A DNA stretch of 64,000 bases from assembly GCA_951406725.2 (NCBI GenBank), contig OX597815.1, forward strand, positions 173,104,001-173,168,000, read 5' to 3'. The stretch comes from Octopus vulgaris (taxonomy: Eukaryota). Position 1 is the first letter of the stretch. Each line of letters starts with the position of its first letter. Under the pieces are notes generated by a model. It worked only from the letters and a program-made list of their open reading frames with translations. It was not told the DNA's origin and ran no database searches. Of this stretch, positions 12,854-61,656 are shown in pieces. The translations under genes and the position numbers were made by a program.

Positions 12854-14591
12854 AAATCTCAGGTTAGTTTCAGCAGTCATGCAACAATTATGCTGAAACT
12901 AATACATATAGCTGATCTTTCTTTCAGTTCCACTCAGACCTAACAGGACTGGCTTTCATTATACTACTCATACTTTTCAGGCCTTGTGTTTATAATAGAA
13001 AAGATTATACTTCTCATAATGACATTTCCATGCACAAAACTATATTGTGTTGTCTGACTTTTTGTCTCACTGTACAAACTTCAGTTTAATAATCTCTTCT
13101 GGTGTGACTTCAAATGTATTTGTCGCAGATATGAAGCAATTAATTGAACTGGTTTCAATGACAAATTTGATGGTTTGTTACTTTAAAGATAGCATATCAG
13201 AATTTATAAGGGGAAAAAAAAATATAGATTGGTACAATAACCCTTAGGTAACAAGTATGAATTATTAATCCAACAAAAACAGCAACAAAAGACATTTTGT
13301 CCTTAATCTTCATGCAACCATTTAGTTATAAAGTTGGTTATAATTTTCATCAGTAAAAATGTTTCAGGTTTTATTTGACAAATTAAATTGCAAGATGTTG
13401 CAAACATTTCAATAAAATATAAGCAAATTCAGATAATGGATTATTTTGTTTATTTTACCAAAGTAAACTTTTCAATAATGTAAAAAATGTAATATATTTA
13501 TGCCATGTTTCCTTCAATGAAATGATCCAGTTACAGAATGTTTGCTAAATTAACCATGACAATGTTTACATGCATATCATCACTGGTTTCAATATAAATT
13601 AAAAACAAATTATATTTTCTTATCCACAGTTCAACATACAAACTATGGAATACACTATATATTAATCTATTTATCAGTTGCTAGGCACCAGTGGATTGCT
13701 GAAAAAAAATCCAGACAAAGCCATTGTTAACAATAACAGCACACAATTAAAAATCTTTAATAAATTAAAATATTTAAATTTCAATATGAGAGCTAACTTT
13801 TGTATGTTGTGAAATTAAATATCCAGATATAATTCCAAACCAAAGGTTGATCACATAAGTAATATATTTGTTATTCACTTTTAAAAATCTTAAATTACAA
13901 TCATTGGAAACAATGCTTGGAAAATAAAAGATTAAAGCAGAGTAAATTGAAAGTTAAAAGAATTCAGAGGCTTTAGACTGAAATATTTCATAACTCTTTA
14001 AACTATTTAAGACCAACCTTCCAACGAATTTAAATGAAGAACTGTTGATAAAGCTGAAATTATAAATAAAATAACAGCACTCCATTGCGTAGCCACATAC
14101 ATTATCTAGCTTTTACCACCTTGAAAATATTATTGTTCAATTTTTAACGCTGATCATTATCTGTTTGACATGTCTGTCATCTGGTGACACAAATGCTAAA
14201 GTGACCTAATTGAGTAAAAGGAAAATATATAGCTCTCGTTTCTCCTTAAAAGAGGTATTCAAACAGTTTAAATGTTTTGAAAGAAACCGTGTTAGGATGA
14301 TGAAAAAAAATCTTTCATCATTTTAATCTCTAATTGTAAAGAAAAGTTGCATTCTCTTGATATTATATTTTTCTCAGATCATTAGTTTATTAGCAGAAAA
14401 AGTTCGAGGTGAAAGTAGAAAAAGGTTTCTTAACTGAACTCATTTGGAAGAGAAAAAAAAAACAAAACAAAACTGGATATTACTTGGAACTTCCAATTTT
14501 TAAAATGAGATGAATTGAGATCATTGATAACTATTTGATATGATATGACTTTATATCATTCTTTTCTAAATCCTTTGTCAATTAAACAAGT

Positions 14592-15572
14592 TCAAGTAGT
14601 GTCCAGGCCTTTGGCTTGAATTAACGACACAACATAAGGAATCCCAGAAGTTTCTAAATCACTGTTACTGTCTCGTTCAAGTTCAATTTTGATAGGATAA
14701 GAGTCTTTGGCACTTTTAGTGTGAGGACTGAAATCTTCAGTATTTGAGTGAGATAAATTAGATAAAGAATCTTCAGGTAGTTCTGAAGATTTTAGACGCT
14801 TTGGAGGTGGAGGACTTTTTGGGTCTTCATTATCACAGTAAGAATGTGGTTGCCAAGGTTCTGATAAATCATCGTGGACAACAATATGTGTGTCTGAGTG
14901 TCTTGAAGGGAAAGAAGATAAGAAATCTTTTTTACTGCACCTTTTTTTCAAAGGACTTGATGGTTCTTGTTTTAATCCTACAGAATCATTGGCATAGCCT
15001 GAAACTGAAGAGTCTTTATCAGCTGAATAAAGGATCACCGGAGGAACTGATTGTTTTGTTTGGAACTGTATTTGATTTGTCATTGATTCTGTAGCTAAGT
15101 TCTGTAACTGTTGCACTGGTTTCGAGATTGATGGAGTAATATCACTATTGGGTAAACCCATGAAAGATACACCAGTTGATAAAGATGGGCCATCAGTTTT
15201 AGGCATTGTATCCATTGTATTAACAATCTCTGTTGAAATGGCATCCCTAATAATGCCTGGAGATTCAGTTGGTTGAGAGATTAAGGCCTTAGTTGTGACA
15301 GGATTGTCAATAGAACTCAAAACCTGCTTCCGATAAAGTTTACACATATCTAATAGATCACTTAAACCAAGGATTTTTGCAATATGCTCCATATCCTCCA
15401 ATACCTCCTCATTAAGGGAGACAACACCTTCATACATATATTTAGCAAATGCCCATAAAGCATCACCACCAATATCCTGAGAAAATGTCAACTGGAAACA
15501 ACCTGATGTTACAGTGGCATTTGGCAATGTTAAAAGTTGTGGACTAAGAGCAATCAACACAACTTTGTGAAC
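14592..15572 (-). CDS. Terminal exon of the BTB gene: C-terminal half of BTB/POZ domain plus S/P-rich disordered tail
   Basis: ttttctag|GTT acceptor, phase 0; VHKVVLIALSP...AKYMYEGVVSL...IAKILGLSDLLDMC is a ZBTB/Kelch-type BTB; basic NLS-like PPPPKRLK; SUMO-consensus LKQE and IKIE. Confidence 0.9.
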   Translation of the reverse strand, partial: VHKVVLIALSPQLLTLPNATVTSGCFQLTFSQDIGGDALWAFAKYMYEGVVSLNEEVLEDMEHIAKILGLSDLLDMCKLYRKQVLSSIDNPVTTKALISQPTESPGIIRDAISTEIVNTMDTMPKTDGPSLSTGVSFMGLPNSDITPSISKPVQQLQNLATESMTNQIQFQTKQSVPPVILYSADKDSSVSGYANDSVGLKQEPSSPLKKRCSKKDFLSSFPSRHSDTHIVVHDDLSEPWQPHSYCDNEDPKSPPPPKRLKSSELPEDSLSNLSHSNTEDFSPHTKSAKDSYPIKIELERDSNSDLETSGIPYVVSLIQAKGLDTT

Positions 15573-17842: not shown

Positions 17843-18005
17843 CATAATTTTCATTGTTCCATTTCCAATGGAAGCATCACAGAGTTTACCTTTTTTCCAA
17901 AGATTGGTCATATTGGAGAGCATGTGGCCCTGATGTTTGTGCACAACATATGAATGAGTAGGGTTTTCAACTGTTTTCATAAACGTTGTTGGTGTATTCT
18001 GCTCA
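17843..18005 (-). CDS. Internal exon: N-terminal half of BTB domain (shared constant exon)
   Basis: Acceptor tttctctttatgtacag|T (phase 2) and donor ATG|gtaagt (phase 0); HQGHMLSNMTNLWKKGKLCDASI joins VHKVVL to complete the BTB. Confidence 0.88.
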
Positions 18006-21000
18006 CTGTACATAAAGAGAAATGAAATATAATACATGATGGATGTTGGATATAAATTGACAAAAACATTAAAAATAAATTAAAATATTGCAATTCAATT
18101 GTTAACATTTTAGTAGTCACAAATATTTGCACCAAACATAGCTGAAGGGTAGTAACTGATACCTCCACTGATACCCTCACCTAGCTTATTTTGTAGTCAG
18201 GTCTCATTTTTACAATAACTGCCACCACAAAATGCTCAAAATAAAAATGAAGAGGCTTATAACATGAAGTAAAACTCAATTGCAACATTATTCATCAATC
18301 CAGCTTTAGAAACAATTCAGATGAGATGAGTGCTACGTCACTTATTTGAAAATCATCACACTAAAGACAATTATATCATACATTATTCTGCTACATTCTA
18401 CCAAATTTTATCATCCCAGAGCAGAACAACATCTTTTATACCTTTTTCTGGTGTGTATGTCACAGAGAAATAAATAAACATATATATATAATGTGTAAAG
18501 CAATACCATGTTAAAAAACAAATGTTAAAGTTACAGAACATTAATGAAATGTATTCACAGAAATCTCTCCCTCTCTCATATGTGTGTGTTATGAAAACAG
18601 AAACTGACTCTACATTGCTAGACAAAACAAACATTCTAAAAGAAGTTAAGTAATATTTCATTTCTTTAAGAAAATTCAAAGACTTTTATATAAAGAAACT
18701 ATCACTTCTATGTTTTCTTTTATTTATATATACACACAAACACACACACACATATGCATAACTGTTGTGTGTATATGTGCATGCACATATATAAGCACAT
18801 AATATATGAATAGTGAAATTTACATTTAATAGCATTTAATATAAAATTCTGTCAACAATATTTTACAACATAATGCTACCATAAATCAAAAAGCTTGCTC
18901 CAATAGCAAGCAAAAATAGGGGGAAATAGGTAAAGTAAGAGCTTAGGACTCCAGACAGAAACACTGCATTCACTTTTATAGATAGAAATATGTATAGATT
19001 CGCAGTGACCATACCGCTCATGATGTATGAAATAAAATGTTTTGGTTTCACTTTTAAATGTTATGCCAACAGAAGTAAAACATGGTTGCATATTTCTGCA
19101 AATGCTATGTAACAGTAACTGATTACTTAAGTAACCTTATTCAACTGTTCCAATTTTCAAAATGAGAAGTACATGGACATGAAAGATCTTGCAAGTGAAG
19201 AAAAAAAAATATGATAACAAATGTTATATTAGTAAATTACAGAAGAAAATCATTGAATAATCTAATAAACATACTGTCAAACCTGTCTCAATAACTTAGA
19301 TCAGCTTTAAAATTGTTCACTACCATTTGTTGTCAAGCCTACAAGAAATGGCAGTGAAATCTCTCACTTCTTAAAAAGAGGAAAGACACAAGTCAATGTA
19401 GTTTTAGATACATTATGTCTGAATAAAAATAGGTTGATCATAGATGGAACAGCTTTGAATAGAGGTCTACTCATTCAGGGATAATCTGGGGTTAAAACAA
19501 CACTTATTCACCTTTCTGAATGGACCCTGCATCTGTCTGTAATAATCGTATCACAAATTCAATAAACAAAAAGTTATTTAACCCAGCAAAACAACTTCAG
19601 ACACTTAACATTACCCTAAATCTAGATTTATTAATTCAAATAATTAAGGCTTACAAATACCAGGACCTGGCATTTAATTAGTTTTCTTTAGACTATCCAG
19701 TAGCTGTATAATTGCCTAAATGAGATGATAATGTAACTAATGCTTGCAAAGAATAAACTAGCCACATCCTAATTTAGTTATAGTAACAATTGAAGAGATT
19801 GCACCCATTCCAAATAACAGTTTTAGAACATACAGAGACTTTTAAGGGCACAACTAAGTTTTACTTTCATGACCATCATTCTGAAGGTATTTCAGCTGAA
19901 ACCAACCCATCTCTTTTTCCAGTAGATAATACAATCCATGATTGTATTATCCAGGGTAACCCACTTCTAAAGACAACAGGATGTAGTTTGGAAGAAATTA
20001 GGCTGTTATTTTTACCAGGTCAAGTAATCATAGAGTAGTCATGGGCAAACTACAGCCTATAGGGCTTTCTGAATGGCACACCTAAATGAAAAATTACCTT
20101 CAGTCTTTTTAGTAGTGTGACCCACCTGATGATGAACATCTCATGTAGTCTGCTTCTCAAAATAGGTTGCCCATACCTGACAGAAAATTCCTTAAAACAG
20201 AATGGCAATCACATTGCAAGACACAATGATACATAAACATAGATAATTCATTCCATGCATTCATCCCACAAAAATGCGTAAAAACATAAAATCCAAATTA
20301 CCCAAGTGACATAGTCAGCTTGATAAAAAACCAGGAACAACCACCTTAAACAAAACACTAATACCATACATAACAGAATTAAATTTCATTGAGAAATTAA
20401 ATAGAAAATGAACCAGAGAAAAGAAAGCTGTTAAAAATATGTACCTATGATAAATCACAAAACAAGCAAATTTATATTAAAAATTCAACTGACCCCCCCC
20501 CCCAAAAAAAAAACCCCCCAGCATTACAGGGACTCAACACTCACATACACGCCTTCAAAATCCCTGAAGAGGACTTATGTTTGATATCACCAACTCACAT
20601 ATTCCTCTTTGAAACTTGCAAAAAGAATTCAGATAACTTCACTCAACCACAATAATTCACAAATCTTATTCAAGGAATACATGATGGCTTCTGCAATGAA
20701 AGAGTCCTCTCAGGCACTATATAACTATTATCAATAGAAGCAAAGCATTTGACTTATTTCTTTATATTCACATATTAACAAACAATTCAATTCCATATGA
20801 GAAAAGAAATTTTTAAAATGTTGGCTCTAACATGAAACAAGAAACATTGGATTAATAGGAAACCTCTACACAATTCATTGACCTACTAGAAATAGTAGCC
20901 ACATATCCAACAAATACTTTATCAGCTTAACAAACGGGACACATTTGGATAATAGAGTCTTAGCTATAATATGTATGAAAAAAGGTGGGATCGTCATAGT

Positions 21001-21989
21001 TGGAATGCATTCAGCTATACATCTATCTGGTCAAAGTAGACCTAGGGTTAAACAACAATAACAGGTATACAAATAACAGACTGAACCAAGACTCCCACAG
21101 AACATCCTATACAATTAAAGGGTGACTACTTGGTTGTTTCAACCTGCTACAAAAGTAGCTCAGATTACACTCTTCCAGATACACTGGATAATGCAGTCTT
21201 AGATATGCAAAAGATGAGGCATTGCACTCTGTAAAGTGGTTGGTATTAAGAAGGGCATCTAATCACAAAAACCTTGTCACAGATGACATTGGAGACCAAT
21301 GCAACTCTCAGGCTAGTCAGATCCTGTCAAACCATCCAGCATGGAATACGGGTGTTAAATAATGATGATGAATCATGGCTGCAATACTTTCAGTCATACA
21401 TGAGTATGCATGGTCAAGGCTGACCTGAGGTTAAACAACATCAACAATCAAATATGGCCGAGATCACTCTGCGGTCATCTTTTAGACAGAGGTGAGGATA
21501 TCTAGAGCAATAGATCTTTATATTGCACTTTGTTGTTTAACCAATAACCAATAATCTAACTGAACAGCTACACAGTAATTAAGCCTGCTAGATATAGTAG
21601 GCAAATTCCTGTCAGATTATATTCTCCTGTCTGAAAATGCATTAGTTGCAATGTCTTTGATTAAAGGTCTGTTGAACAACAAACTACACTCAACAACCTG
21701 CTTGAAAAGGGTTAACCAAGTGAAGTGCTTTAAACATTAGCCTAAGTATTTGTAAGTTGGTGTTAATATTGGATAGTAATTGCAGATTTCTATGAAGCAC
21801 TAGTAACTGCATTATAACAGATATCTGTTCAAATGTTTGAGCATGATGCAGAACTACATTATAGCGTGTTTGTTTCTATATATTTTCACATTCGTTTTAA
21901 GGCCTGTAAGACTATGGTCAGCTAAGGAAACCTGTTAAGATCAAAACATTTCTGGAGTTGTCACTGTATGTACCTAAGATCAAACTATA

Positions 21990-22370
21990 GGTGCAGTGTA
22001 ACAGTGTGAGAAGAGGCTTGTTTCTTAATCATATGGTCTTGGGTTCAATCCCATTGTGTGGCACCTTATGCAAGTATTTTCCACAATAACTCCAGACCAA
22101 CCAAAACCTTGTGAGTGGATTTCATAGATGGAAACTGAAAGAAGCCTGTTGCGCATGTGTGTGCTTTTGTGTTTTTGTTTGTTCCCCACCACTGCTTGAC
22201 AACTGGTGTTGGTTTGTTTATGTCACCATAACTTAGCTGTTTGGCAAAAAGGGTTCAACAGAATAAGTAACAGGCTTAAAATAAGTACTGGGGTCGATTT
22301 GCTTGACTAAACCCTTCAAAGGAGTAGCCCAGCATGGCCACAGTTCAAAGACTGAAACAAGTACAAGATG
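21990..22370 (+). mobile_element. tRNA-derived SINE, full length, diverged
   Basis: gggttcaatccc B box, core, tail agcatggccacagttcaaagactgaaacaag. Confidence 0.75.
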
Positions 22371-23925
22371 ATACAATTTTCAACAAATTTGGACTCCAGA
22401 GTTGTCTTCCTTGCCTTTGACAATAATTATTATTCTTCACACTAATGATTTTCTTCAGCGTAATTTTTAATTTTAATTGATTTAACATTTCTTTTTAGGT
22501 TCACTACATTATGTTAATCCCTAGTTATGCTTTTTTGCATACAGAAGACAACTCTGAGAAAATTTCCCATGTTATAACTAGTATGCCAATTATATACGTA
22601 TAGAGATTTTGTTGAGAATTCTATGAGTGAAGTAGCCTTGATCAGTGTGAGAGAGTTGTAATCCCTTTGCAACCCATTTAGTTTAGTCCTAAAGATATGT
22701 CTAAAGTGGCCAAGACAGTAGATTTTGGAAAGTTTTTAGTCACTAATGCGTTATTAAGGACTAAAAATGTTAACAGGTGAAGGATAAGCTTAAACAGACA
22801 GGACAGGATTTGCTTTCATTATATAATTGTTGTTGTTTATCTGGGTCAGTTCTGATCCAGCATATCTATGATTAAAAGCACTCCATTGTGACCATCACAT
22901 CTTTTCCAGACATAGTGTATTTAGGGCTGCATTATTTAAGTGTCCTTCTAAATTTTTAAAAGATAGTGAAATGCTAGGTATATGCATAAAATCCATGGCT
23001 ACGTGATTAAAAGCAAAAGAAGTACAAAGGGTTATCAATGATGTAGAGATTATAGTGTCTAAGAGGTGAAGTATAAATCATCTTGAAAAATGAGAGACAA
23101 ACAAGATACTTTGTATGTCTTTTAAAAGGAATGCAACAGAGTCATGTTTCAGACAGAAGACATACCTGACATTCTGCAAGTTTGTTTTTTGTGTGGTTTG
23201 TAAAAGCTAATTTTGTGAAAATCTGTTGAGCATGTATATTGTATGATGTAATATTGCAGTTACTTTTCTATAAGCTAATCATAGGAGTATTAGCATTGCC
23301 TAGGACATTTGCAGAGGTTTCTCAACTGGCAAGATTGAAGAAGAACTGATTTAGTGGTCAATGAAGAAAGTCACTCAAAACTACTTAACTAGTTGAGCAC
23401 AGGTTCCAAATTGTGAAGAAAATATATGACTATGTGCCATATGATAGGGCAGCTTCCCTATATAATAATCAAATTTTCAGCTTCCTATGGTATCTAGTGA
23501 CAGCCCACTGGAAAACCTTTTCAACATGTACACATGCAGTAATGAAGTAGCACTACACAATGGAAGATGCAGTTGGAAGTTGCGCATCAAGATATTGGTA
23601 CCATCCACAAACCTGAATATCTGGACTTTGCAACGAAAACAACTACACTTAATGCACTCAGGAACTAGTGTACCCTTTTATTAGGCCTATGACCCCAAAA
23701 ATGTTTCAGCACAGGTCTGTTTGTTCTATTACAGAAGCTGACTTACTGTAGTCAAAGCCTTTAATTATGCAGCAGTTACATACAATTCCGAGTGAACAAA
23801 ACTACTAGGTGAGTTGTCTTTGTAGCAGCTCAATTGTTGATTGCAAATTTGCAAGATTACTAAGAGTGTAGGGATTCACTGAAATCATTGAAGAGCTGTC
23901 TACAGGTGCAAGAAATATATATATA

Positions 23926-24836
23926 TTGGGTCATCCCATAAAGAATAGCGGTTTTCTCAGTTGCATGAACTAAAAGTCAGAGGGAGACAGGATAAACTAC
24001 CTGCATCAACTTGCTATAAAAGCAGGTAGTAAATTTAACTTGACCTTATTCTTAGTTCAACTTTTGAAGAGTGCTGTTCAATTTTAACAGTTATTTTTTC
24101 AAAGCTATACTGGAAGTGGCAAAGGAGCATATTCAGCATATTTTGCTTTATGAGTTCAATAAAGGCAACAATGCAATGGAAAGTGCAAGGAATTATTAAT
24201 GCAGTATATGGGGATTAGACAATAAGCATAAGCCAGTTTCAATGATGGTTCCAGAAAATCCAAGCTGGAAACTATAGCCTCGAAGATGACCCTTGTCCTG
24301 GAAGATCTGTAGAGCTCAACAAGGACTTCCTGCAAACTCTGGTGGAACAGAATTCCATCATAACTGTTGTTGAACTAGCAGAGAAGCTTGGATTTGGTCA
24401 TTCAACCAGTCATTCAAGTCAGCGCTAGAAGAAAAGCAACCATCTTTGGTTTCAAGATGAAAGGTGTTCTTCCATCAGGATAATGCTCGGCTACATACAA
24501 AAAGGACGACATTCTAAAGGATGGAGCAGTTTGAATGGGAAACGATGCCCCACCAACCATATTTGCCAGACATTGTCCCATCTGATTATCATTTATTCCA
24601 CAGTTTCCAAAATCATTTGGACTGAAAAAACATGAACTCTGTAGACGAGGTCAGAACAGTACTGGAGGAGTATTTTTGTCACAGACAAGTGAATTTTGGA
24701 AGAAGGGCCTTGCAAGTCTACCAGATAGATGGAAGAGCATTGTAAAAAATGAAGGAGAGTATATATTTTAGATTAAAAAAGAACTTTATCTTAATTTTGA
24801 AAAATAAAGGAAGTATAAAAAATCCACATTATTTAT
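23926..24836 (+). mobile_element. Internally deleted mariner, family A copy 2
   Basis: TA|TTGGGTCATCCCATAAA left TIR; colinear with copies 1 and 3 apart from a deletion near 24415; many stops. Confidence 0.88.
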
Positions 24837-25499
24837 ATATGTGTGTATATATATATACCTGGGTGAAAGTGTACATGACTTAGAGAGAGAAACAGTATCG
24901 GTAATACTGGAAGTGTAACAGAGTTTAACAGAGATCAAAGATAGACATATTTTAGAATTAGGGTTAGCTAATGAATAGTTATTAAAGGACATAAAATGTC
25001 TAACCAGTAACTACTACTTGCTTCGGAAAGAATAATTCAAATAGGGTAAAAATAGAATTGTGTAGAACACAAGAGGATGAAAAAATTGTAATAAAGGTTG
25101 AGAATAATAGTACACATACACAAACAAAAATAGAAGTATAGTCACATATATAAACTATACTTTCCATATGCTTTGGTAAGTGAGGAAACTACACAAGTGA
25201 CAGTATTTCATTGTCATAGAAATGTGTGATGTCCCGCCCACATCCTCTCCATGGCCACTAACTTACAAGAACTTTGATGTTACTAGTCTAGAGTCCCAGC
25301 AAAATGTTTTCAGCACACTTATACATATGCACACAAATAAACTTAAAAAAAGATATATAAAAATATTCATGTATAAAATTATATATATAACCTTTAGGTT
25401 ATGAAATTTGCTTTTTAATCATGTGATTTTGAGTTCAACACTTTTAAGTTGGTGTCTTTTACTTCAGTCTTGGTTTACTGAATGTCTATTGAATGATGT

Positions 25500-25860
25500 G
25501 GAGGCACAATGGCCCAGTGGTTAGGGTAGCAGACTCGCGGTCGTAGGATTGAGGATTTGATTCCCAGACTGGGTGTTGTATTTATTGAGCAAAAGCACCT
25601 AAATCTCCACGAGGCTCCAGCAGGGGGTGGTGGCAAATCCTGCTGTACTCTTTCACCACAACTTTCTCTTGCTCTTTCAACCTGTTTCTGTTGTACCTAT
25701 ATTTCAAAGGGCCAGCCTTGTCACGCTGAATCTCCCCAAGAACTATGTTATGGGTACACGTGCCTGTGGAGTACTCAACCACTTACATGTTAATTTCATA
25801 AGCAGACTGTTCCATTGATCAGATCAACTGGAATTCTCGTCATAACCAACGGAGTGCCAC
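25500..25860 (+). mobile_element. tRNA-derived SINE, third family
   Basis: A-box tggcccagtggttag and degenerate B box gatttgattccc; body unlike the other SINEs here. Confidence 0.6.
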
Positions 25861-28102
25861 TGAGTGATATTTTGTAGATGGAAATTGTGTGAAACCTTAT
25901 GCAAGAGATGACAAAGGACAGTGTTGATTGGTGATATGCAGTGTTGGAGAAAACCTCTATTCAGCAATGTAAGCATGACAAATTGAAATTCACAAGGATA
26001 ATGGTAATGATGTAGACTGAGAGGTATACATTTTATGTGTATCCGTTTGCATGGGTATGTAGGTATATTTACAGCCTAGTTGACTATCACTGTTTTTTTT
26101 CTGTACTGTGACATTATTTCACTTCTCTGACATCCCTAGCCATTCATATGAATGGGACCTCTCCCATCATCCTTATCACCCAACCCCTTCTACTTACACT
26201 TTCATTTTCCCCATCATCCTTATCTGCCTATTTGTATGGGCCCCCACTAACTACCATACTCACCATTTGTTAACCCATCTTTAGGAGACCACACAACATT
26301 GGACCTGTTGTGTCCAGTACACTTTACTCTAATCTTCATCTTTCCCTCTTCTTGTTCACTCTACCTGCCATTATACTCTTACTTCTTTTCACCCACATAT
26401 CCTTGCTATCGCTCTCTCTCTCTCAAGCACATGGATCATCTTGCCACTGTTACTGCTCTATTCTCTTGCTCACAATTCACTGATTGTACATACTTGCTTC
26501 AGAATACTGAGTACCATTCTTATGACTATCATCCATACCTCTGTTTATCTTATCCTTAATGCTTCCCACTCTATAAACAGGTTCATGAGCAAGAAGTCAT
26601 GGAGTCAAGAGGTTTCTTCAGTCATGTCATAGACATAGCTACCTCTGAAGCACTGATGCTTTGAAAAAAATACTCAATACTTTTTTCTGCAAATTACTTG
26701 GAACTTGCAATACTGCAAAGTAGCTGGAACAAGGAAGGGCATCTGGCCATAGAAACCAAGCTGAGAATGAAACCCACAAGTGACATATAGTCTTCCAGCC
26801 CAACTACATTAGCAGCACCCTCAAATGTGCTAACTTGAACCATACTGACCACCAATCCATACCAGCATCGCTGGTGTAGATATAAATATTTAAGCAGTGT
26901 ATGATTAGAAAACCTATGATAAATTTAAAGTAGACAAACTTCAGTTTTTAAGCTTTTTGCTGTGGTGAATATATTTTTTTTATTCTTCAAGTACACAGAA
27001 TAATAAAGGAGATTGTCCTGACATGTTCCACAGTTTGTTAACCACTCATTTGATGGGCAAGTACCCCATTATTCTTCTGCCCACAAAAAGAACTTACAGT
27101 AAATTGCTATTTAAATTAAACACAAATAGAATTTATATGTAAAGGCTAGACTAACTGTATTGTCAGCCGTACGTTGAAGTAACAGATAAACTTAAAGTAG
27201 TTTAACCATTGTTTTTGAGGGCTTTTTTTTGTTGTTGTAGGACTTTTAAACAGATATTGATGAACACGATGATGATGATGATTATTCTCTTTATACACAG
27301 AAAAATAAAGAACACATTGACAACTGATCAGACAATCAGTACCCCTTCTCTTTCACTTTTTAAAGGTAAATTTGGACAAGTTTGTCAAAATTTACCCTTT
27401 GTAATGCACCTTCATTACATCGTGAGTGAATGAACACACCATAAAGTAGTAAGTACTAATGGGGTACGAAGCAAACTAACTGTACCATCATAAAATGCAT
27501 CCAGTCAAAACAACGCAGGGTCGAGAGGACATGCCAATCTCTTTAGTTGTGATGCCCCGAAAAATGCACACAATGCATTCTGTAAAGTGGTTGGTAATAA
27601 GAAGGGCAGGTACCCCACCCCTCCGGCCCAAAGTGAAACATACAAGCGAGAAGTTAACATTGAACCCCTTCAAGGAAAGCACAACCACGCACGTACATAT
27701 ATAAATGTCAGTTGCAATAAAATGTATTCAACTGTTAAAGTGAAAGTCACAAAACATTAGACACACACATGTATCTTTAAAGTATTTCTCAAGCGAAATA
27801 AGCGTGTGACAAAGCTGAATTATTATTACATAAACACAAACACTACATTACACACAGGACGGACCTCTGCAGTTTCCGACTACCAACCTCCACTCCATGA
27901 CATTGGTGAACCCGAATGCATCGCAGAAAACACGTGCGATAATTTTGGTTTGACATACAAACATTATATATATGTGTGTGTGTGTGTTTATTGCATGTAT
28001 GGTGTATGCGTGTGTGCAAATTAAAAAGCTTGTTTTTAAATATAAGAATTGTTCTATATAACAAAAATCTTGAGACTGGGGACGATCGTGTAAAAGTTAT
28101 GC

Positions 28103-29647
28103 TTACGTGAAAGAGTTGGCGCAAGAATGCACATCTGTAATCATAAAGGAGGATGTCTCTGAACTTTGGTCGGCAACACGATTCTCTTCCTGAGTTTCAA
28201 TTCTGCTAGAACTTTTTTCTTTCGATTCTCTCCCTCTTCCAAAATGTAAACTTTGTAAACACCGTAAGTTGTTTTTTGCCTCACTGGAACTTATCTGTTG
28301 TCTTCTGTTTGTAACTTGTTCTCTCCAATTGACAGATTTTTCGCTGGAATCTCCGGTTGTTGAAAGATGCGGCCTTGTAGCGTTAGATTTTGGTAAACAC
28401 GAAGTATTTAGGGATGATATTGGTGATGAAGTGAGGAGATTAATATTCTTTTTCTGCGATAAGGCAGTAGAATTATTTGAGAGATGTTGAAATTCATTTC
28501 TGAAATTATTTACCCTTTTGTTGGAGGTGATCTTAGAATTTAATCGAGCCTCTTCCAAGAAGGGTGCTGCTACTGCTGATGTACTTTGCTCTCCAGCAAT
28601 GTTACTAAGAATAGATGCCATCTTCTTTCTCTGTGAAACAGATGTTGGCTGTCCGAATAACTGACTGATAGCACGAACATCTTTTCTGTTTATGCCACCC
28701 CACAGTAGTTTCTCTATGGCCGTAGCTCTCAGACTGTGGTTAGTGTAACGTTTGGACAGTCCTGCCTTGTGGCTTAGCGTAGGCATCATACCACCCAGAG
28801 GAGTTTTACCATACGGAATGCGATCGAACCAATACGGTTGACTAGAATCAACCAGTTTTTTAGGTTTTTGGAAAAGTCTATCAAAATCCTGATGCAGTTT
28901 AGAAATATACAACTCGTATGCCCTCACTGGACAGAGCACATCTCCTTTCAACGATGGTATCAGCCCTCCAGCTAATTCCTCATCATTTTCCCCGTTTCCA
29001 TCCAGAGGTTCAGATTCGTTTTGAACAATGCTCCGCTCTCCCTGAGCATCAGTCCGAATAACAAATGAAGTTATCTTCAATTCTGTCTGTCCATCTCTTC
29101 CCAGTCTGCACATGTAATATTGCAAAATAAACCAAACATACTCCAAAAGTTCCCGTGGAGTTGGATTCTGCATGTTTGCTTTAAAATATTCTTTTAAACG
29201 AGCCATGTCTTGCTCTTCGACAGGAGGGTAATGTCGTATCAGGCCTTTGCCCTCGGCTTTAATACGCTTCTCCATAAAAACAAAGGATTCGTTCGCTTCG
29301 ACGAAAGCATCTCCTTTAATAATATCCAGATTGAGAGTTTCCTCAAAGTGTCGTTTGAGTGCATAACGAAGAGAACGGAAAGCTGTGAGCTGATAAAGTT
29401 CACATTTTTTTGTTCGCGCACCAGCATATAATCGCTTCAATACCTGACATAATAATGACACATCTTGGGTCGCAGACTCCACATTATAACCAACTTCATT
29501 GCAAAAATCGGTGAAAACTCGCACCCCCCATTGCGTACTATCTTTCGTTTTCTGACAGTGTTTATCTTCAGTAGTTTGTTTACTTGAATTATCGACAACA
29601 GTCAGATTACTACTAGGTTGGACCACCTTATGCCACTCAGTCGCCAT
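28103..29647 (-). CDS. Crypton-derived DUF3504 (tyrosine-recombinase-like) protein of the KCTD1/QRICH1/ZMYM/KIAA1958 type; 514 aa standalone, or first exon 28107-29647 spliced to the BTB exons
   Basis: Intact ORF with TQWGVRVF, SLRYALKRHF, EANESF, GKG..HYPPV, YMCRLGRD, CPVRAYELYISKL, WFD..P.GK..LG.MM, AGLSKRYTNHSLRATA; stop codon lies inside the donor AC|gtaagc. Confidence 0.9.
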   Translation of the reverse strand: MATEWHKVVQPSSNLTVVDNSSKQTTEDKHCQKTKDSTQWGVRVFTDFCNEVGYNVESATQDVSLLCQVLKRLYAGARTKKCELYQLTAFRSLRYALKRHFEETLNLDIIKGDAFVEANESFVFMEKRIKAEGKGLIRHYPPVEEQDMARLKEYFKANMQNPTPRELLEYVWFILQYYMCRLGRDGQTELKITSFVIRTDAQGERSIVQNESEPLDGNGENDEELAGGLIPSLKGDVLCPVRAYELYISKLHQDFDRLFQKPKKLVDSSQPYWFDRIPYGKTPLGGMMPTLSHKAGLSKRYTNHSLRATAIEKLLWGGINRKDVRAISQLFGQPTSVSQRKKMASILSNIAGEQSTSAVAAPFLEEARLNSKITSNKRVNNFRNEFQHLSNNSTALSQKKNINLLTSSPISSLNTSCLPKSNATRPHLSTTGDSSEKSVNWREQVTNRRQQISSSEAKNNLRCLQSLHFGRGRESKEKSSSRIETQEENRVADQSSETSSFMITDVHSCANSFT

Positions 29648-30300
29648 CTTGTTGAGGCTTTGTCAGGTTGGCTTAACGACAGTTAATACATATTCAATAA
29701 AATAGATTTTTTCTCATAGTGCAGAAAATTTCCCATAGTACAGGTTCAGAGGTATCTTTTTTTTCTGTATATTTTTTTCCAGCGAAAGAATTACAAACAT
29801 ACACAAACGCTGATTCGTTTTCAAAATATAATCTACATAGATCTGTTACAGTTGAGGATAATTTGGATAGATAGATTTTCGACAGAAGTTACATAAATTG
29901 TTTAAGACTGGGTAGTAGTACGTGGTAGAAGTCGACCAGCCAATCTAATAATAGCTGATTATAAACCAGACCCGCTGCTGTCAGTTAGCTTGCTAGCTGG
30001 CTATCGGTCCTGCAAAACAAGCAATAATACAGCAATAGAAAGCAGTTCGCTCGACTTGTAACTGTTGTTCCTCTTAAAACAAAACAACTTAATGGAGGAT
30101 AACAAATCTGATAGTGTATGTGCGCATGTTGTATATGTGTGTATCTCTCTCTATATATAAACACACACATACACGTTGTGCATATGCCAATATATTAATT
30201 CTGGCAATATCTGCAGTCACCCTCTCTCTCTCTCTCTCTTTCTCTCTCAATCTATCTCTTCGGTAAACTACAGAAAAGCTGAATAGAAATAAATCATTAT
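29640..30300 (-). promoter_or_regulatory. Putative CpG-retaining promoter / 5' region of the DUF3504 exon
   Basis: Local CpG retention; YY1-like CAAGATGGCG spanning the ATG; two degenerate ZNF143-like motifs (ttctcatagtgca, ttcccatagtaca) at 29711-29742. Confidence 0.4.
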
Positions 30301-37355: not shown

Positions 37356-37760
37356 TTACCCATATAAGGATCTTTTGTTCTGTCTTTGTATTTGGTTTTG
37401 AAGTTCCATATTTTGTTGGGCATCTACAGTCATGTGTGAAAGCCTAGACTGTATTCTTGGAATCTGAGCATTATTAGGCATGGTAGATTGGTTGTAAACA
37501 GTGGGTTGTGCTAGGATGCAATCATTTAATGAAGAAGTTTGACTAAAATAGTTTGTAATATCAGGTAGATTAAAGTGAGTGGTTAAATTCTCAGAGTTAA
37601 TGTGAGATTGCAAATCTGCAGGAATGATTAGCTGGCCAGAGTTGTCAATAACATCTGAGGGTAATTTATCAATTAAATTCGATGATATATCAGTTTTAGT
37701 CCCAAATAATGGAAGATTTCTTTCAGAGAGTGGTTCTTGTTTGATTACCTGACAATCAAC
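37356..37760 (-). CDS. Exon 2 of the THAP transcript: low-complexity Q/N/S-rich linker (VDCQVIKQEPLSERN...QNKRSLYG)
   Basis: tcctttccag|GTT acceptor, phase 0, matching the THAP donor; 134 open codons; IKQE SUMO consensus; stop lies inside donor GG|gtaagt, so the exon ends at 37360 if spliced. Confidence 0.75.
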   Translation of the reverse strand, partial: VDCQVIKQEPLSERNLPLFGTKTDISSNLIDKLPSDVIDNSGQLIIPADLQSHINSENLTTHFNLPDITNYFSQTSSLNDCILAQPTVYNQSTMPNNAQIPRIQSRLSHMTVDAQQNMELQNQIQRQNKRSLYG

Positions 37761-39193: not shown

Positions 39194-40355
39194 TTAGGTC
39201 GTCAAGTATGAAATTTGTAGAAAAAAAAAGTTTTCTTATCTTTTATAAATACAAGGAATAGTTTTACTCATCAAAATATATTGTCAATACACTTTTGCCA
39301 TTTCAGTGGTAGCTTGTCCAGCCCAGAACTGTAAAAGCCTGGGAATCTAGAGTCAATAAAATCTTGGAAGGCCTGTTTTATAGTACCATTGAAATTAATT
39401 TTTTTTCCTATCAAAAAGTTATCCACATTCTGGAAGAAGTGGTAGTCAGTGGGGGCAAGATCAGGTGAGTATGGTGGATGATGGAGAACTTCCAACTCCT
39501 GCTCCTGTAGTTTTACCAATGTCATTTTTGTCTTGCAATAAAATAGGAGTGGATCTATTGACTAATCTAGGCTGTTCTTTGGTAAGTTTCTGCATCAATT
39601 GGTCCAGTTGGCTGCAGTATACTTCGGCCATGATTGATGAGCCAGGTTTAAGAAATCATAATGGATCATATCTGCGCCAGACCACCAAACACACACCATC
39701 AGTTTCTTTTGATGAATTTAGCTTTTTGGACTGTGTTTTGGTGGCTCGTCTTTGTCCAACCATTGCGCTGAATGTTTACAGTTGTTGTACTGGATCCATT
39801 TCTCATCACATGTTACAATTCGATTAAAAAAATTATTCATTTTTGTGACAAGAAAGTAGCATTGCTGTTTCTGATTTTCATTGTGTTCATGTGGAACCCA
39901 CTTATCCAACTTTTTCACTTTACCAACTTGAACTAGGTGAATCAATATTATTTGCTTGCTAACACCAAACAACAACGATAATTCACAGGCACTTTCAGAT
40001 GGATCTGACTCGATGGTGGCTTTCAGTTTGTCATTATCCACCTTTGTTTCTGGTTGACCGTGTTGCTCATTTGTGAGGTCAAAGTTACCAGAACGAAATT
40101 TTGCAAACCAATTTGATACTGTCTGCTGTGTAATAACATTAGGATGAAATACTCCATGAATATTCTGAGCTGTTTGTGATGCATTTCCAAGAAAGAACTC
40201 ATATTTCAAAACTGTATGAATGAGTTAGAATAAAGAAATAGACGTGTCAGCTTTCTAACAAAGAATAAAGATTCAAAATATAATAATGGTGCAAAATGAG
40301 CAGCTGTCAAAGTTTACTATATACCTTACTACAAATTTCATACTTGACGACCTAA
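39194..40355 (-). mobile_element. Mariner transposon, family B, frameshifted
   Basis: Perfect 27-bp TIRs ttaggtcgtcaagtatgaaatttgtag (39194-39220 and 40329-40355); motifs WVPHE, IVTCDEKW, HPPYSPDLAPTDYHFF. Confidence 0.95.
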
Positions 40356-56502: not shown

Positions 56503-56997
56503 TTCGATTTGATTGAGAAAATCCCGATTACTCGAGACCTTAGTTATGTCTTCGAAGTCGATGTCACATTGCAAAATCTTCGGAGAAAACAACTCATTCA
56601 AACTTTTTTGCGATGTCACATTAATATATTTATTAGCCCACGGACAAATGGGAGGAATTCTTAGCGTCATCGGCCGGTTCTTACGTTGTTGTTCTGGCGA
56701 CATGTTATCCAGTCCCAACTGGGTTCGCATCATGTTGTAGTTGTTGATAATTGCAGGCCATTCCTGTGACCAAGGGAAAAAAGAAGGGTCTTTTTTGTCG
56801 TGGGTTTTTTTGCCATTGGGAAAATGTAGACTACAAACACTTGTGTACTTAGAATCAATACGTAAGTTACTGTTTCTTATGAGTGCAACCCAAGTAGCAC
56901 GACGGGTTTCTTCCTTAGGGAGACTATAGAAACGGATTCTTGCATGTCTTTTAGAGTCGGCAGAACAGAAAGGGATGCAACAATTAACATGTGGCAT
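56503..56997 (-). CDS. THAP-domain protein, first coding exon (165 aa)
   Basis: N-terminal C2CH finger C-x4-C...P...W...CSLHF...DPSFF (AVPTIF-box variant); donor GAA|gtgagt, phase 0. Confidence 0.9.
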
Positions 56998-59650: not shown

Positions 59651-59745
59651 ATTTCCTGTAACCTTTTGAATTTGAACCTAAGTAAGTAATCAATATTATC
59701 TAAAATTCATTCTTGGGAATCATGTGGACATCATTACAATTAACA

Positions 59746-61656
59746 GGCACAGGTATGGCTGTGTGGAAAGAAGCTTGCTTCCAGTATAGCGTTTGTCAGT
59801 TGGATTGTTGGTTTTGTTTGTTACACACGTGGTTTTTTTGCTGTCTTGGCAGTGCAACGTTTGTCCTCTTGTTTAATGGATGAGTGTCGAGTGAGGAGTT
59901 ATGAAAGTTTGAATTGTTCTGTTTCAGACGTTGTAAACCGCCCTTCTTTGGACTTTGTGTTATCTGAGGAAGAAATGGTGGAATGTATAAAGAAGATAGA
60001 CAAAGCAATGGAAGCAAGGAATTATGCTGCAGTGACAAAAGAAAAAAGCGAGGATGTGAGCAAGTTCAAGGGAATGCTTAAAAAGGAGGGTAATGAAGTG
60101 AAGTTGTTCCCCACTAAAGAAGTTTTAATGGAAGCAGCAGAAAGAACAATAATTTACCGAACATACTCAGTGGCAGCCAGGAAGATTGAGATCATGTCAA
60201 TGGCTCAAATAGAAAAAGCACTTAGACCAAACTTTATTTCTGACAAGGTAGGAAATCCCTTGCTAGAGGAAAAAAGTTTGGAATGGTGGAGGTGCAGTTC
60301 AGAAAGGTAGCTACCGCCCGGCTGCACTCAGCAACACCACTGAAAACTGATTAAGTGGTTCTTAAACCCGTACACCTTGGGAGACGTACTTCCAGGGTTA
60401 AGGTGGAGGAAATATACCCCCCAGAAGTGGATGTAACCTGGCTGATGGCTGCCATACTGCTAGGCATGGAGGAGAAGGTAGTGGTCCTCCAGGCCACCAG
60501 AACACCCCCTAGGAACTGGCAAGGACAAACCCTTGATATGATGGTGCAAGTTGTGGAGGAAGACTTAGAAAAGATGGTCAAGACCATCACAATCGGAGAG
60601 ACAACATTGAAAGTCAGAGTGGAAGAGAGGATTCCGCGGTGCTATAAATGTGGCCTGAAAGGTCACATTAGAGGGTTTTGTCCACCACCACTGGAAAAGG
60701 CTAAGGAGAGACAGGAGAGTGAAAGGGTAGTTGGTGCTCCACTGCCCATGGAGGAAAAGGAAAATGATGTGGCACCACAGACGAAAGCAAGTACCAGCAT
60801 CAAGGAAGAGGCAAACACCTGCTGGGAAATGGCAGAAAAAGAGAAAGAAAAGAAGAGGACACACGTGGTAAAGGATGACCGCCGCCCCCACCCACACCCA
60901 TTCTATCCCAACCACTCCCTAGACACCAATCCTCCCCATGCCCTGTCTGACACAAAAACAAGTGCAAACACACAGGAGCATCAAACGTACCCACTCCCAC
61001 CCTGTAAGGAAAAATATGTAATAATGTATAATGGACAAAATGAAGAACTGTATAATGGACAAAATGAAGAACTGTACAATGAGGTAGACTCATGGGATGG
61101 AGTAATTAAAGTGGATGTAATGAGAGTAAGGGGTCTGCTTGAGAACATTCATTACATGCTGGCAGACCCAGAGTACCTGATGAGATTACATGATTATGTA
61201 GAAAATTTTGACTGCAAGTGGTGGGTTTGAAGAAAATAGACACTAGTACAATGCAGGAACGGATAAGGTATGTCGATATTTAAAAAAATATAACATAGAC
61301 ATTCTGAAAAAAACATGCTGAGTAACTGTTGCAAATGGTGGTGTAAATAATTGTGTTCCAAAAAAAAGTTGTATTAACAGGTTCAATGAAGTTTCTCGGA
61401 GGTGGGACCGTACAGCTTCATTTCATCTTTCATTATATTAATTCATTCTTTTCTTTTTTGTCCCCACCTTGTGCTGTCCCTTCTATGTAAGGCCTTCATG
61501 GCCAATTTCCTAAAATAAGAAGTTTGCTTCCAAATCACATGGATTCTGGATTCAGTCCCACTGTGTGGAACTTTGGGCAAGTGTCTTCTACTATAGCCCA
61601 AGCTGACCAAAACTTTATGAGTAGATTTGACAAATGGAAACTGAAAGAAGCATACC

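Follow-up and report, generated by a model that had tools for sequence, protein, structure and literature searches.

What is a transposon-derived recombinase doing in front of a BTB domain in an octopus gene, and did it arrive there as in vertebrate KCTD1? The gene in question lies on the minus strand of a 64,000-nucleotide stretch of Octopus vulgaris DNA (GenBank assembly GCA_951406725.2, contig OX597815.1, positions 173,104,001 to 173,168,000; this whole stretch is called the window and is numbered from its first letter). An initial annotation had proposed here a fusion of a Crypton-derived DUF3504 exon with a BTB domain, apparently convergent with KCTD1. We consider it likely that the gene belongs to a coleoid BTB family in which a constant module receives, by splicing, alternative first exons from transposons inserted upstream, of which only the DNA-binding parts are kept. 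This reading is built on the gene structure, one spliced isoform, the catalytic loss, the conservation, a single BTB clade and several Crypton origins, all of which were observed.

Three minus-strand exons with canonical splice sites compose an open frame of 894 amino acids (aa) with a single terminal stop, in which a catalytically dead Crypton tyrosine recombinase (DUF3504) is followed by a ZBTB/Kelch-type BTB and a disordered tail. The donor CAC/GTAAGC after 28107 (phase 2) is compatible with the acceptor TACAG/T at 18005. This joint was found in contig 9 of sequencing run X5 (4,294 nt, depth 30.4), which matches 13434-15570 and 28107-30098 with zero mismatches and covers the middle exon. 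Its length equals that of the three exons once spliced (1992+163+2139), its 3' end at 13434 lies 20 nt past the AATAAA at 13454, and the intronic contigs listed for the same run have a depth of 2-4. The frame and the contig bear out the proposed fusion. The features of this isoform are the following.

29648..30098, minus strand: 5' untranslated region of the DUF3504 first exon (contig 9 reaches 30098 and is colinear to the ATG)
28107..29647, minus strand: alternative first coding exon A, which encodes the complete tyrosine-recombinase fold of Crypton (about aa 27-352) followed by a disordered linker that closes with ITDVHS, and has a phase-2 donor (Pfam, model, conservation)
28103..28105, minus strand: in-frame stop if the donor is unused, giving a 514-aa DUF3504-only product (sequence; database proteins ending there)
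17843..18005, minus strand: shared exon with the N-terminal BTB part, i.e. beta1, the alpha1 dimerisation extension and LCD (frame, spliced contig at depth 30.4, model strands and helix)
14592..15572, minus strand: shared last coding exon with the remaining BTB, a disordered tail with psi-K-x-E sites and the C-terminal PYVVSL (PF00651, paralogue intron, motif survey)
13434..14591, minus strand: 3' untranslated region (contig end 20 nt after AATAAA)

The BTB motifs quoted in the initial annotation are present, yet most of the domain sits in the third exon (15572-14592), outside the interval then delimited. The 894-aa product differs from XP_029656788.1 of Octopus sinensis at 1/894 residues and from XP_014776313.1 of O. 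bimaculoides at 14/894; database proteins labelled O. vulgaris may derive from the same genome and were not taken as independent. With a CpG observed/expected ratio of 0.70 in 29700-30300 against 0.32 for the whole window, the DUF3504 first exon likely has its own promoter just upstream, with a presumed start site. Six upstream ATGs are found within 29648-30098, the 5' untranslated region of the recombinase isoform, and translational control is possible.

The open reading frame (ORF) 29647-28103 on the minus strand matches DUF3504 (PF12012; E 2.6e-7, 31.3 bits for a cut-off of 29.7). A structure model built from 60 sequences reached a predicted local distance difference test (pLDDT) score mostly above 90 over aa 31-350, and a fold search with this model returned Cre recombinase as the best match. 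From the R-K-H-R-H-Y catalytic set, the domain keeps HxxR only: Leu182 stands in place of the first Arg, the Lys and also the second His (His/Trp) are lost, and the Tyr falls within 8 residues that are deleted by comparison with the cuttlefish-type orthologue. All six catalytic residues are present in 0 of 17 BTB-linked DUF3504 domains versus 97 of 137 other domains. Exon A DNA has a single match in the genome. Compared with O. bimaculoides, the recombinase is identical at 326/326 residues and the linker at 152/162; the fused orthologue P0013 of a cuttlefish-type cluster shares 276/326 recombinase residues (85%), 37/147 linker residues (25%) and 76% of the BTB. The catalytic residues are lost while the domain is conserved, and the features of a domesticated Crypton gene (fold, lost catalytic set, single copy, conservation, transcription) are all found. 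HxxR as the sole catalytic remnant and the lone DNA match speak against an active Crypton element.

Within the linker, FMITDVHSC (28120-28146, minus strand) is invariant between octopus and cuttlefish despite the 25% identity around it. An ATF7IP-binding (FAM) reading of ITDVHS was rejected, as only a loose resemblance exists to the ITEFSL-like motif in the available part of PMC7706265.

The recombinase fold would clamp DNA without cutting it. We hold it unlikely that the dead recombinase is instead a protein-interaction or DNA-structure clamp aiding other factors, perhaps cephalopod C2H2 proteins, rather than a sequence-specific reader. QRICH1, which acts in this way in Zincore, is the sixth fold match (Zincore-ZFP91-DNA structure 9hjt, E 4.5e-7), and Kojima and Jurka, in the accessible part of PMC3212892, leave both protein-DNA and protein-protein roles open; against this, both recombinase lobes and HxxR are retained here and the sibling first exons described below are plain DNA-binding domains.

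At the other end of the protein, PF00651 was matched at aa 547-650 of P0010 (E 2.7e-9), with no match to PF02214, the T1-type BTB, at E 0.05. The KCTD1/15 C-terminal domain (PF20871) is absent from P0010, and the domain scan found neither a C2H2 array nor BACK-Kelch after its BTB. The best PDB sequence match is NS1-BP, a Kelch-family BTB (E 7.7e-6), TTK-type CG6765 being 15th of 17. Among the fold matches listed, BCL6 and other ZBTBs are on top, KLHL and BACH1 are present and no KCTD appears. The N-terminal elements of a long-form BTB were modelled in the Sepia orthologue (strand E65-69, helix H75-85). An ESM Atlas query with the BTB alone returned generic clusters only. By Pfam, PDB sequence and predicted fold, the BTB is ZBTB/Kelch-like and not T1-type, as initially annotated.

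The Kelch-family match could also be read as a sign that these proteins act on transposases, the captured domains co-assembling with active transposases and the BTB directing them to Cul3 or poisoning the complex. Recombinases and THAP transposases do form multimers. We regard this as quite improbable: BACK or Kelch families have no match on any scanned family member, the top fold matches are BCL6 and other ZBTB domains, and the octopus-cuttlefish conservation is strong yet no close Crypton exists in the genome (other copies are 22-26% identical).

Could the gene, then, be related to the KCTD1 long isoform, as its cephalopod orthologue or as a remnant? The domain order is the same, a Sepia paralogue is auto-named KCTD1_15, and the approximately unbiased (AU) test did not reject a tree that places the octopus KCTD1/15 fragment inside the family clade (p-AU 0.164), although the row of this fragment is almost unalignable (branch 7.2). 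The protein nevertheless possesses neither PF02214 nor PF20871. A true KCTD1/15 orthologue with PF02214 is located on a separate contig (C1), as is the single genomic match of PF20871; no DUF3504 was found within the 60 kb examined near it, and it scores 0.6 bits (E 0.79) against the window BTB. In addition, in a tree that included the KCTD fragment and 26 other octopus BTBs, the 17 family BTBs came out as a single clade (100/99), and the Crypton insertion of KCTD1 is placed after the vertebrate KCTD1/15 duplication in the accessible part of PMC3212892. Domain content, the separate orthologue, the BTB tree and the pairwise score led us to reject orthology, whose probability we consider negligible. 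Of 29 long matches scanned, none carried PF02214. The Sepia member P0269, named KCTD1_15, has neither a T1 BTB nor the KCTD1/15 C-terminal domain, and its name is a database misnomer.

The DUF3504 exon is not the only start of this gene. A THAP exon lies 27 kb upstream of it and would use the same acceptor at 18005, through the following exons.

56503..56997, minus strand: alternative first coding exon B1, a THAP zinc finger with a phase-0 donor (PF05485, E 2e-11)
37360..37760, minus strand: exon B2, a linker between the THAP exon and the acceptor of the shared exon at 18005, entered in phase 0 and left in phase 2 (four-exon frame)

The four-exon THAP-BTB frame is open for 679 aa and 80% identical along its length to Argonauta P0025, which bears the name of isoform X2 of the O. 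sinensis locus; exon B1 is 85% identical to aa 1-165 of P0025. In Sepia P0233, the tail of the same THAP exon is joined to the orthologous BTB. Both starts therefore predate the octopod-decapodiform split. A read-through product of the THAP exon is absent from the protein collection. A comparison of known N-termini with 148 minus-strand ORFs from the window and the 30 kb upstream yielded no further family-type first exon.

Argonauta P0026 and P0027 are two extra copies of the window's BTB module, with linker and motif kept and the recombinase replaced by a zinc-ribbon (weak IS1595-type match, E 0.13) and a BED-like finger; they may be young duplicates or prediction artefacts. Elsewhere in the window, broken mariner (Mos1-type) copies were observed at 39400-40224 and 2121-2501, both on the minus strand, the first in sense orientation in an intron of the THAP isoform. 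At 59744-61230 (plus strand), two long ORFs with a CCHC knuckle resemble a gag-like retroelement part.

The same arrangement extends to the whole gene family. The last BTB exon has 25 genomic matches, and a phase-0 intron before [VML]H[KR] was present in 18/18 paralogues examined. Among the 15 genomic matches to DUF3504, the best 8 are all stop-free, and each is followed downstream by family BTB exons in the same orientation; they fall at five loci (C2, C3, C15, C23, C24); the remaining 7 are 22-26% identical, 4 contain stops, and those read resemble copies of one Crypton element. Of the THAP matches, 16/31 share this placement, as counted from coordinates. Near-identical Crypton copies were noted at L015-L018 (G000 C4, C9, C17, C12), one with a long frame and the six catalytic positions and the others with stops; this element is only distantly similar to the captured domains.

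C3 carries a tandem row of twelve BTB units. Over the 190 kb that precede the first unit (G000:C3:149.17-149.36 Mb), 26/102 sense ORFs match DNA-binding families versus 0/74 antisense ORFs (p 1.6e-7). These comprise 11 THAP, 3 DUF3504, 3 CENP-B/Tc5, 2 Brinker and 2 psq, with FLYWCH, DUF4817, HTH_29, Tc3/Sleeping Beauty and zf-C17orf113 as singletons, and no DDE core was matched in any of the 26. A strong phase-0 donor fitting the constant acceptors was found in 13/16 proximal array exons. Ten database proteins (P0200-P0209; O. sinensis, O. bimaculoides and Argonauta) carry ten different first exons on the same constant exons, and a further head sits on the orthologous module in Sepia P0222 and in the assembled protein P0219. 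On C15 and C24 the arrays are smaller, with FLYWCH, CENP-B and DUF3504 exons; the array reading left out a second C3 cluster (151.2-151.4 Mb), C5 and a second C24 locus. In all mapped isoforms the variable exon is 5' and the BTB downstream. The tails share a Y/F-P-V/I-x-L motif and psi-K-x-E sites in a motif survey, which we take to be candidate CtBP and SUMO motifs, respectively. Named database matches are 51/51 cephalopod (72 matches; 7,996 candidates were scored, so that absence elsewhere is weakly tested). In the ESM Atlas, two clusters combine BTB with DUF3504 (11%) or zf-Tnp_2 (52%) and are labelled Mollusca without finer taxa.

At C3:149197375-149197473 (L033), a constant exon used by the upstream isoforms looks like the final portion of a split THAP domain (HF...GPT..HPDP), so that the younger first exons seem to be joined to the second exon of an older THAP gene. 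The array is nested and has another shared exon near 149.268 Mb. At C3:148.96-149.16 Mb (L039-L048, L019-L030), another eleven tandem BTB units with their own heads were seen, the heads being FLYWCH, CENP-B/Tc5, ZSWIM3/FAR1-type and several STPR-like basic repeats resembling Helitron N-termini.

To count the Crypton captures, trees were built first from DUF3504 domains that span 230 or more profile positions (161 proteins, 154 rows) and afterwards from chosen subsets of 60 and 35 rows; the comparison rows are mostly unnamed, with the 97/137 above keeping all catalytic residues. BTB-linked DUF3504 required five changes in the 154-row tree and six in the 60-row tree, at least four of them forced, and formed one clade in 0/200 bootstrap trees. 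A single origin was rejected (p-AU 0.00038 on 35 rows). The eight BTB-linked exons would thus represent about six captures, not one clade. Two sister pairs join different loci (C3 with C23, C3 with C15), which suggests that loci were duplicated with some heads already present. Of the initial proposal, capture of a Crypton by a non-T1 BTB separately from KCTD1 is upheld, the octopus having its own KCTD1/15 orthologue elsewhere; a single event mirroring KCTD1 is not, given the second THAP start, the about six Crypton captures and the other heads. Other DUF3504 fusions were noticed among the matches, with KRAB (newt), SCAN, ATF7IP, C2H2 (catfish) and a MYM finger (scorpion), in P0067, P0137, P0132, P0107, P0168, P0095 and P0065; the three checked (P0067, P0107, P0132) keep most catalytic residues.

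Several points weigh against the reading of captured first exons on a constant BTB. Direct RNA evidence concerns the DUF3504 isoform of the window only, through a single contig, and the run it comes from is presumed to be RNA by a guess; among the sequencing runs listed with matching sequence none is recorded as RNA. Raw reads X23 and X24 are thin on the exons (about 1-4 per strand), too few for junction counts, and the DUF3504-BTB junction is absent among 15 of 442 joints listed. Database proteins P0007, P0011 and P0014 terminate at the read-through stop, and a BTB-less form ending at 28103..28105 may also exist. The THAP isoform is known from annotation in Argonauta and Sepia, and other isoforms from automated annotation and unnamed assembled proteins. 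With the motif list used, 3/16 proximal exons have no strong phase-0 donor. The window recombinase is a long branch whose position shifts between trees, with no relative above 34%. Finally, DNA binding, dimerisation and repression are what we infer from these data.

Alternatively, the array could be transposon debris in long introns, linked by gene predictors or noisy splicing; broken mariner, Helitron and LINE pieces are indeed present in introns and the isoforms are mostly automated models. The strand bias of 26 versus 0, the missing DDE core in all 26, the matching phases, the single DNA match of the window exon and the conservation across octopods and cuttlefish make this very improbable in our view.

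How does such a system compare with those already known? In the accessible part of PMC3212892, the KCTD1 long isoform shares a single-exon Crypton DUF3504 upstream of a BTB gene, spliced as an alternative N-terminus, and a lost catalytic site. KCTD1 has a T1-type BTB, a KCTD1/15 C-terminal domain and one capture, whereas the octopus gene has a PF00651 BTB without such a C-terminal domain, and its family has taken up Crypton about six times and carries many heads of other origin. The mod(mdg4) and lola loci, as described in the available part of PMC11426971, likewise join a constant BTB to 20-30 alternative DNA-binding exons, FLYWCH included, with an N-terminal TTK-type BTB, 3' variable exons of one or two domain kinds and trans-splicing; the octopus arrays have theirs 5' and in cis order, draw them from many transposon superfamilies and recur at several loci. 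KRABINER-type host-transposase fusions also splice transposase DNA-binding domains to a host regulatory domain and are tetrapod and mainly KRAB in the accessible part of bioRxiv 10.1101/2020.05.07.082677, whose main text contains BTB, Crypton and DUF3504 zero times; the octopus has dozens of captures at one locus. Here too a transposase domain is placed in frame with a host regulatory domain by splicing, which defines a host-transposase fusion.

Clustered protocadherins have tandem variable first exons on constant exons, the variable exons being duplicates of one ancestor and encoding adhesion domains. The octopus arrays share these tandem variable first exons; the protocadherins also have stochastic promoter choice. 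Octopus THAP-BTB and CENPB-BTB proteins were listed by Mukherjee and Moroz, with the BTB read as transposon-derived, in the accessible part of PMC10027918; LOC106877732 occurs 11 times in its supplementary table, 'isoform', 'fusion' and 'Crypton' 0 times in its text, and DUF3504 and the window's locus 0 times in its five supplementary files. Cephalopods are not mentioned in the available parts of PMC13465315 and PMC12062965. Family isoforms are present in RefSeq as uncharacterised proteins, and a search that left subscription literature mostly outside turned up no account of either the arrays or the DUF3504-BTB fusion. Each ingredient is already known (KCTD1, mod(mdg4)/lola, transposase capture).

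The best reading of the arrays is an inverted lola/mod(mdg4)-like system, in which a constant and presumably dimerising BTB receives variable first exons derived from transposons, so that one gene could yield many candidate transcription factors. A transposon inserted upstream in sense orientation would bring a promoter and an N-terminal DNA-binding part, a donor in matching phase would join this head to the nearest constant acceptor, and selection would retain the head while the remainder decays. Each first exon would have its own promoter, and the constant BTB would dimerise, co-expressed isoforms pairing different DNA-binding heads. The targets would initially be the ends of the donor transposons and later host enhancers, and the tail would recruit co-repressors. 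By analogy with BCL6-type BTBs and KRAB-transposase fusions, transcriptional repression would be the likeliest output. More tentatively, and as a reading less likely than not, we propose a coleoid combinatorial transcription factor system in which first exons with their own promoters and a few cross-dimerising BTBs still trap transposons, as a possible counterpart both of KRAB zinc-finger transposon control and of a cell-identity code set by promoter choice and dimer mixing.

With the window's gene, a dead Crypton recombinase is seen on a BTB for a second time, which should help to work out the function of DUF3504. About half of the THAP and DUF3504 genomic matches fall in arrays, so that published counts of octopus transposon-derived factors may count isoforms of a few loci. 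One gene family would be a recurrent trap for transposase domains of many superfamilies, in the reverse order of lola and mod(mdg4). It probably constitutes a coleoid repertoire of transcription regulators, and for cephalopods it offers candidates with which transposon control and regulatory novelty can be tested.

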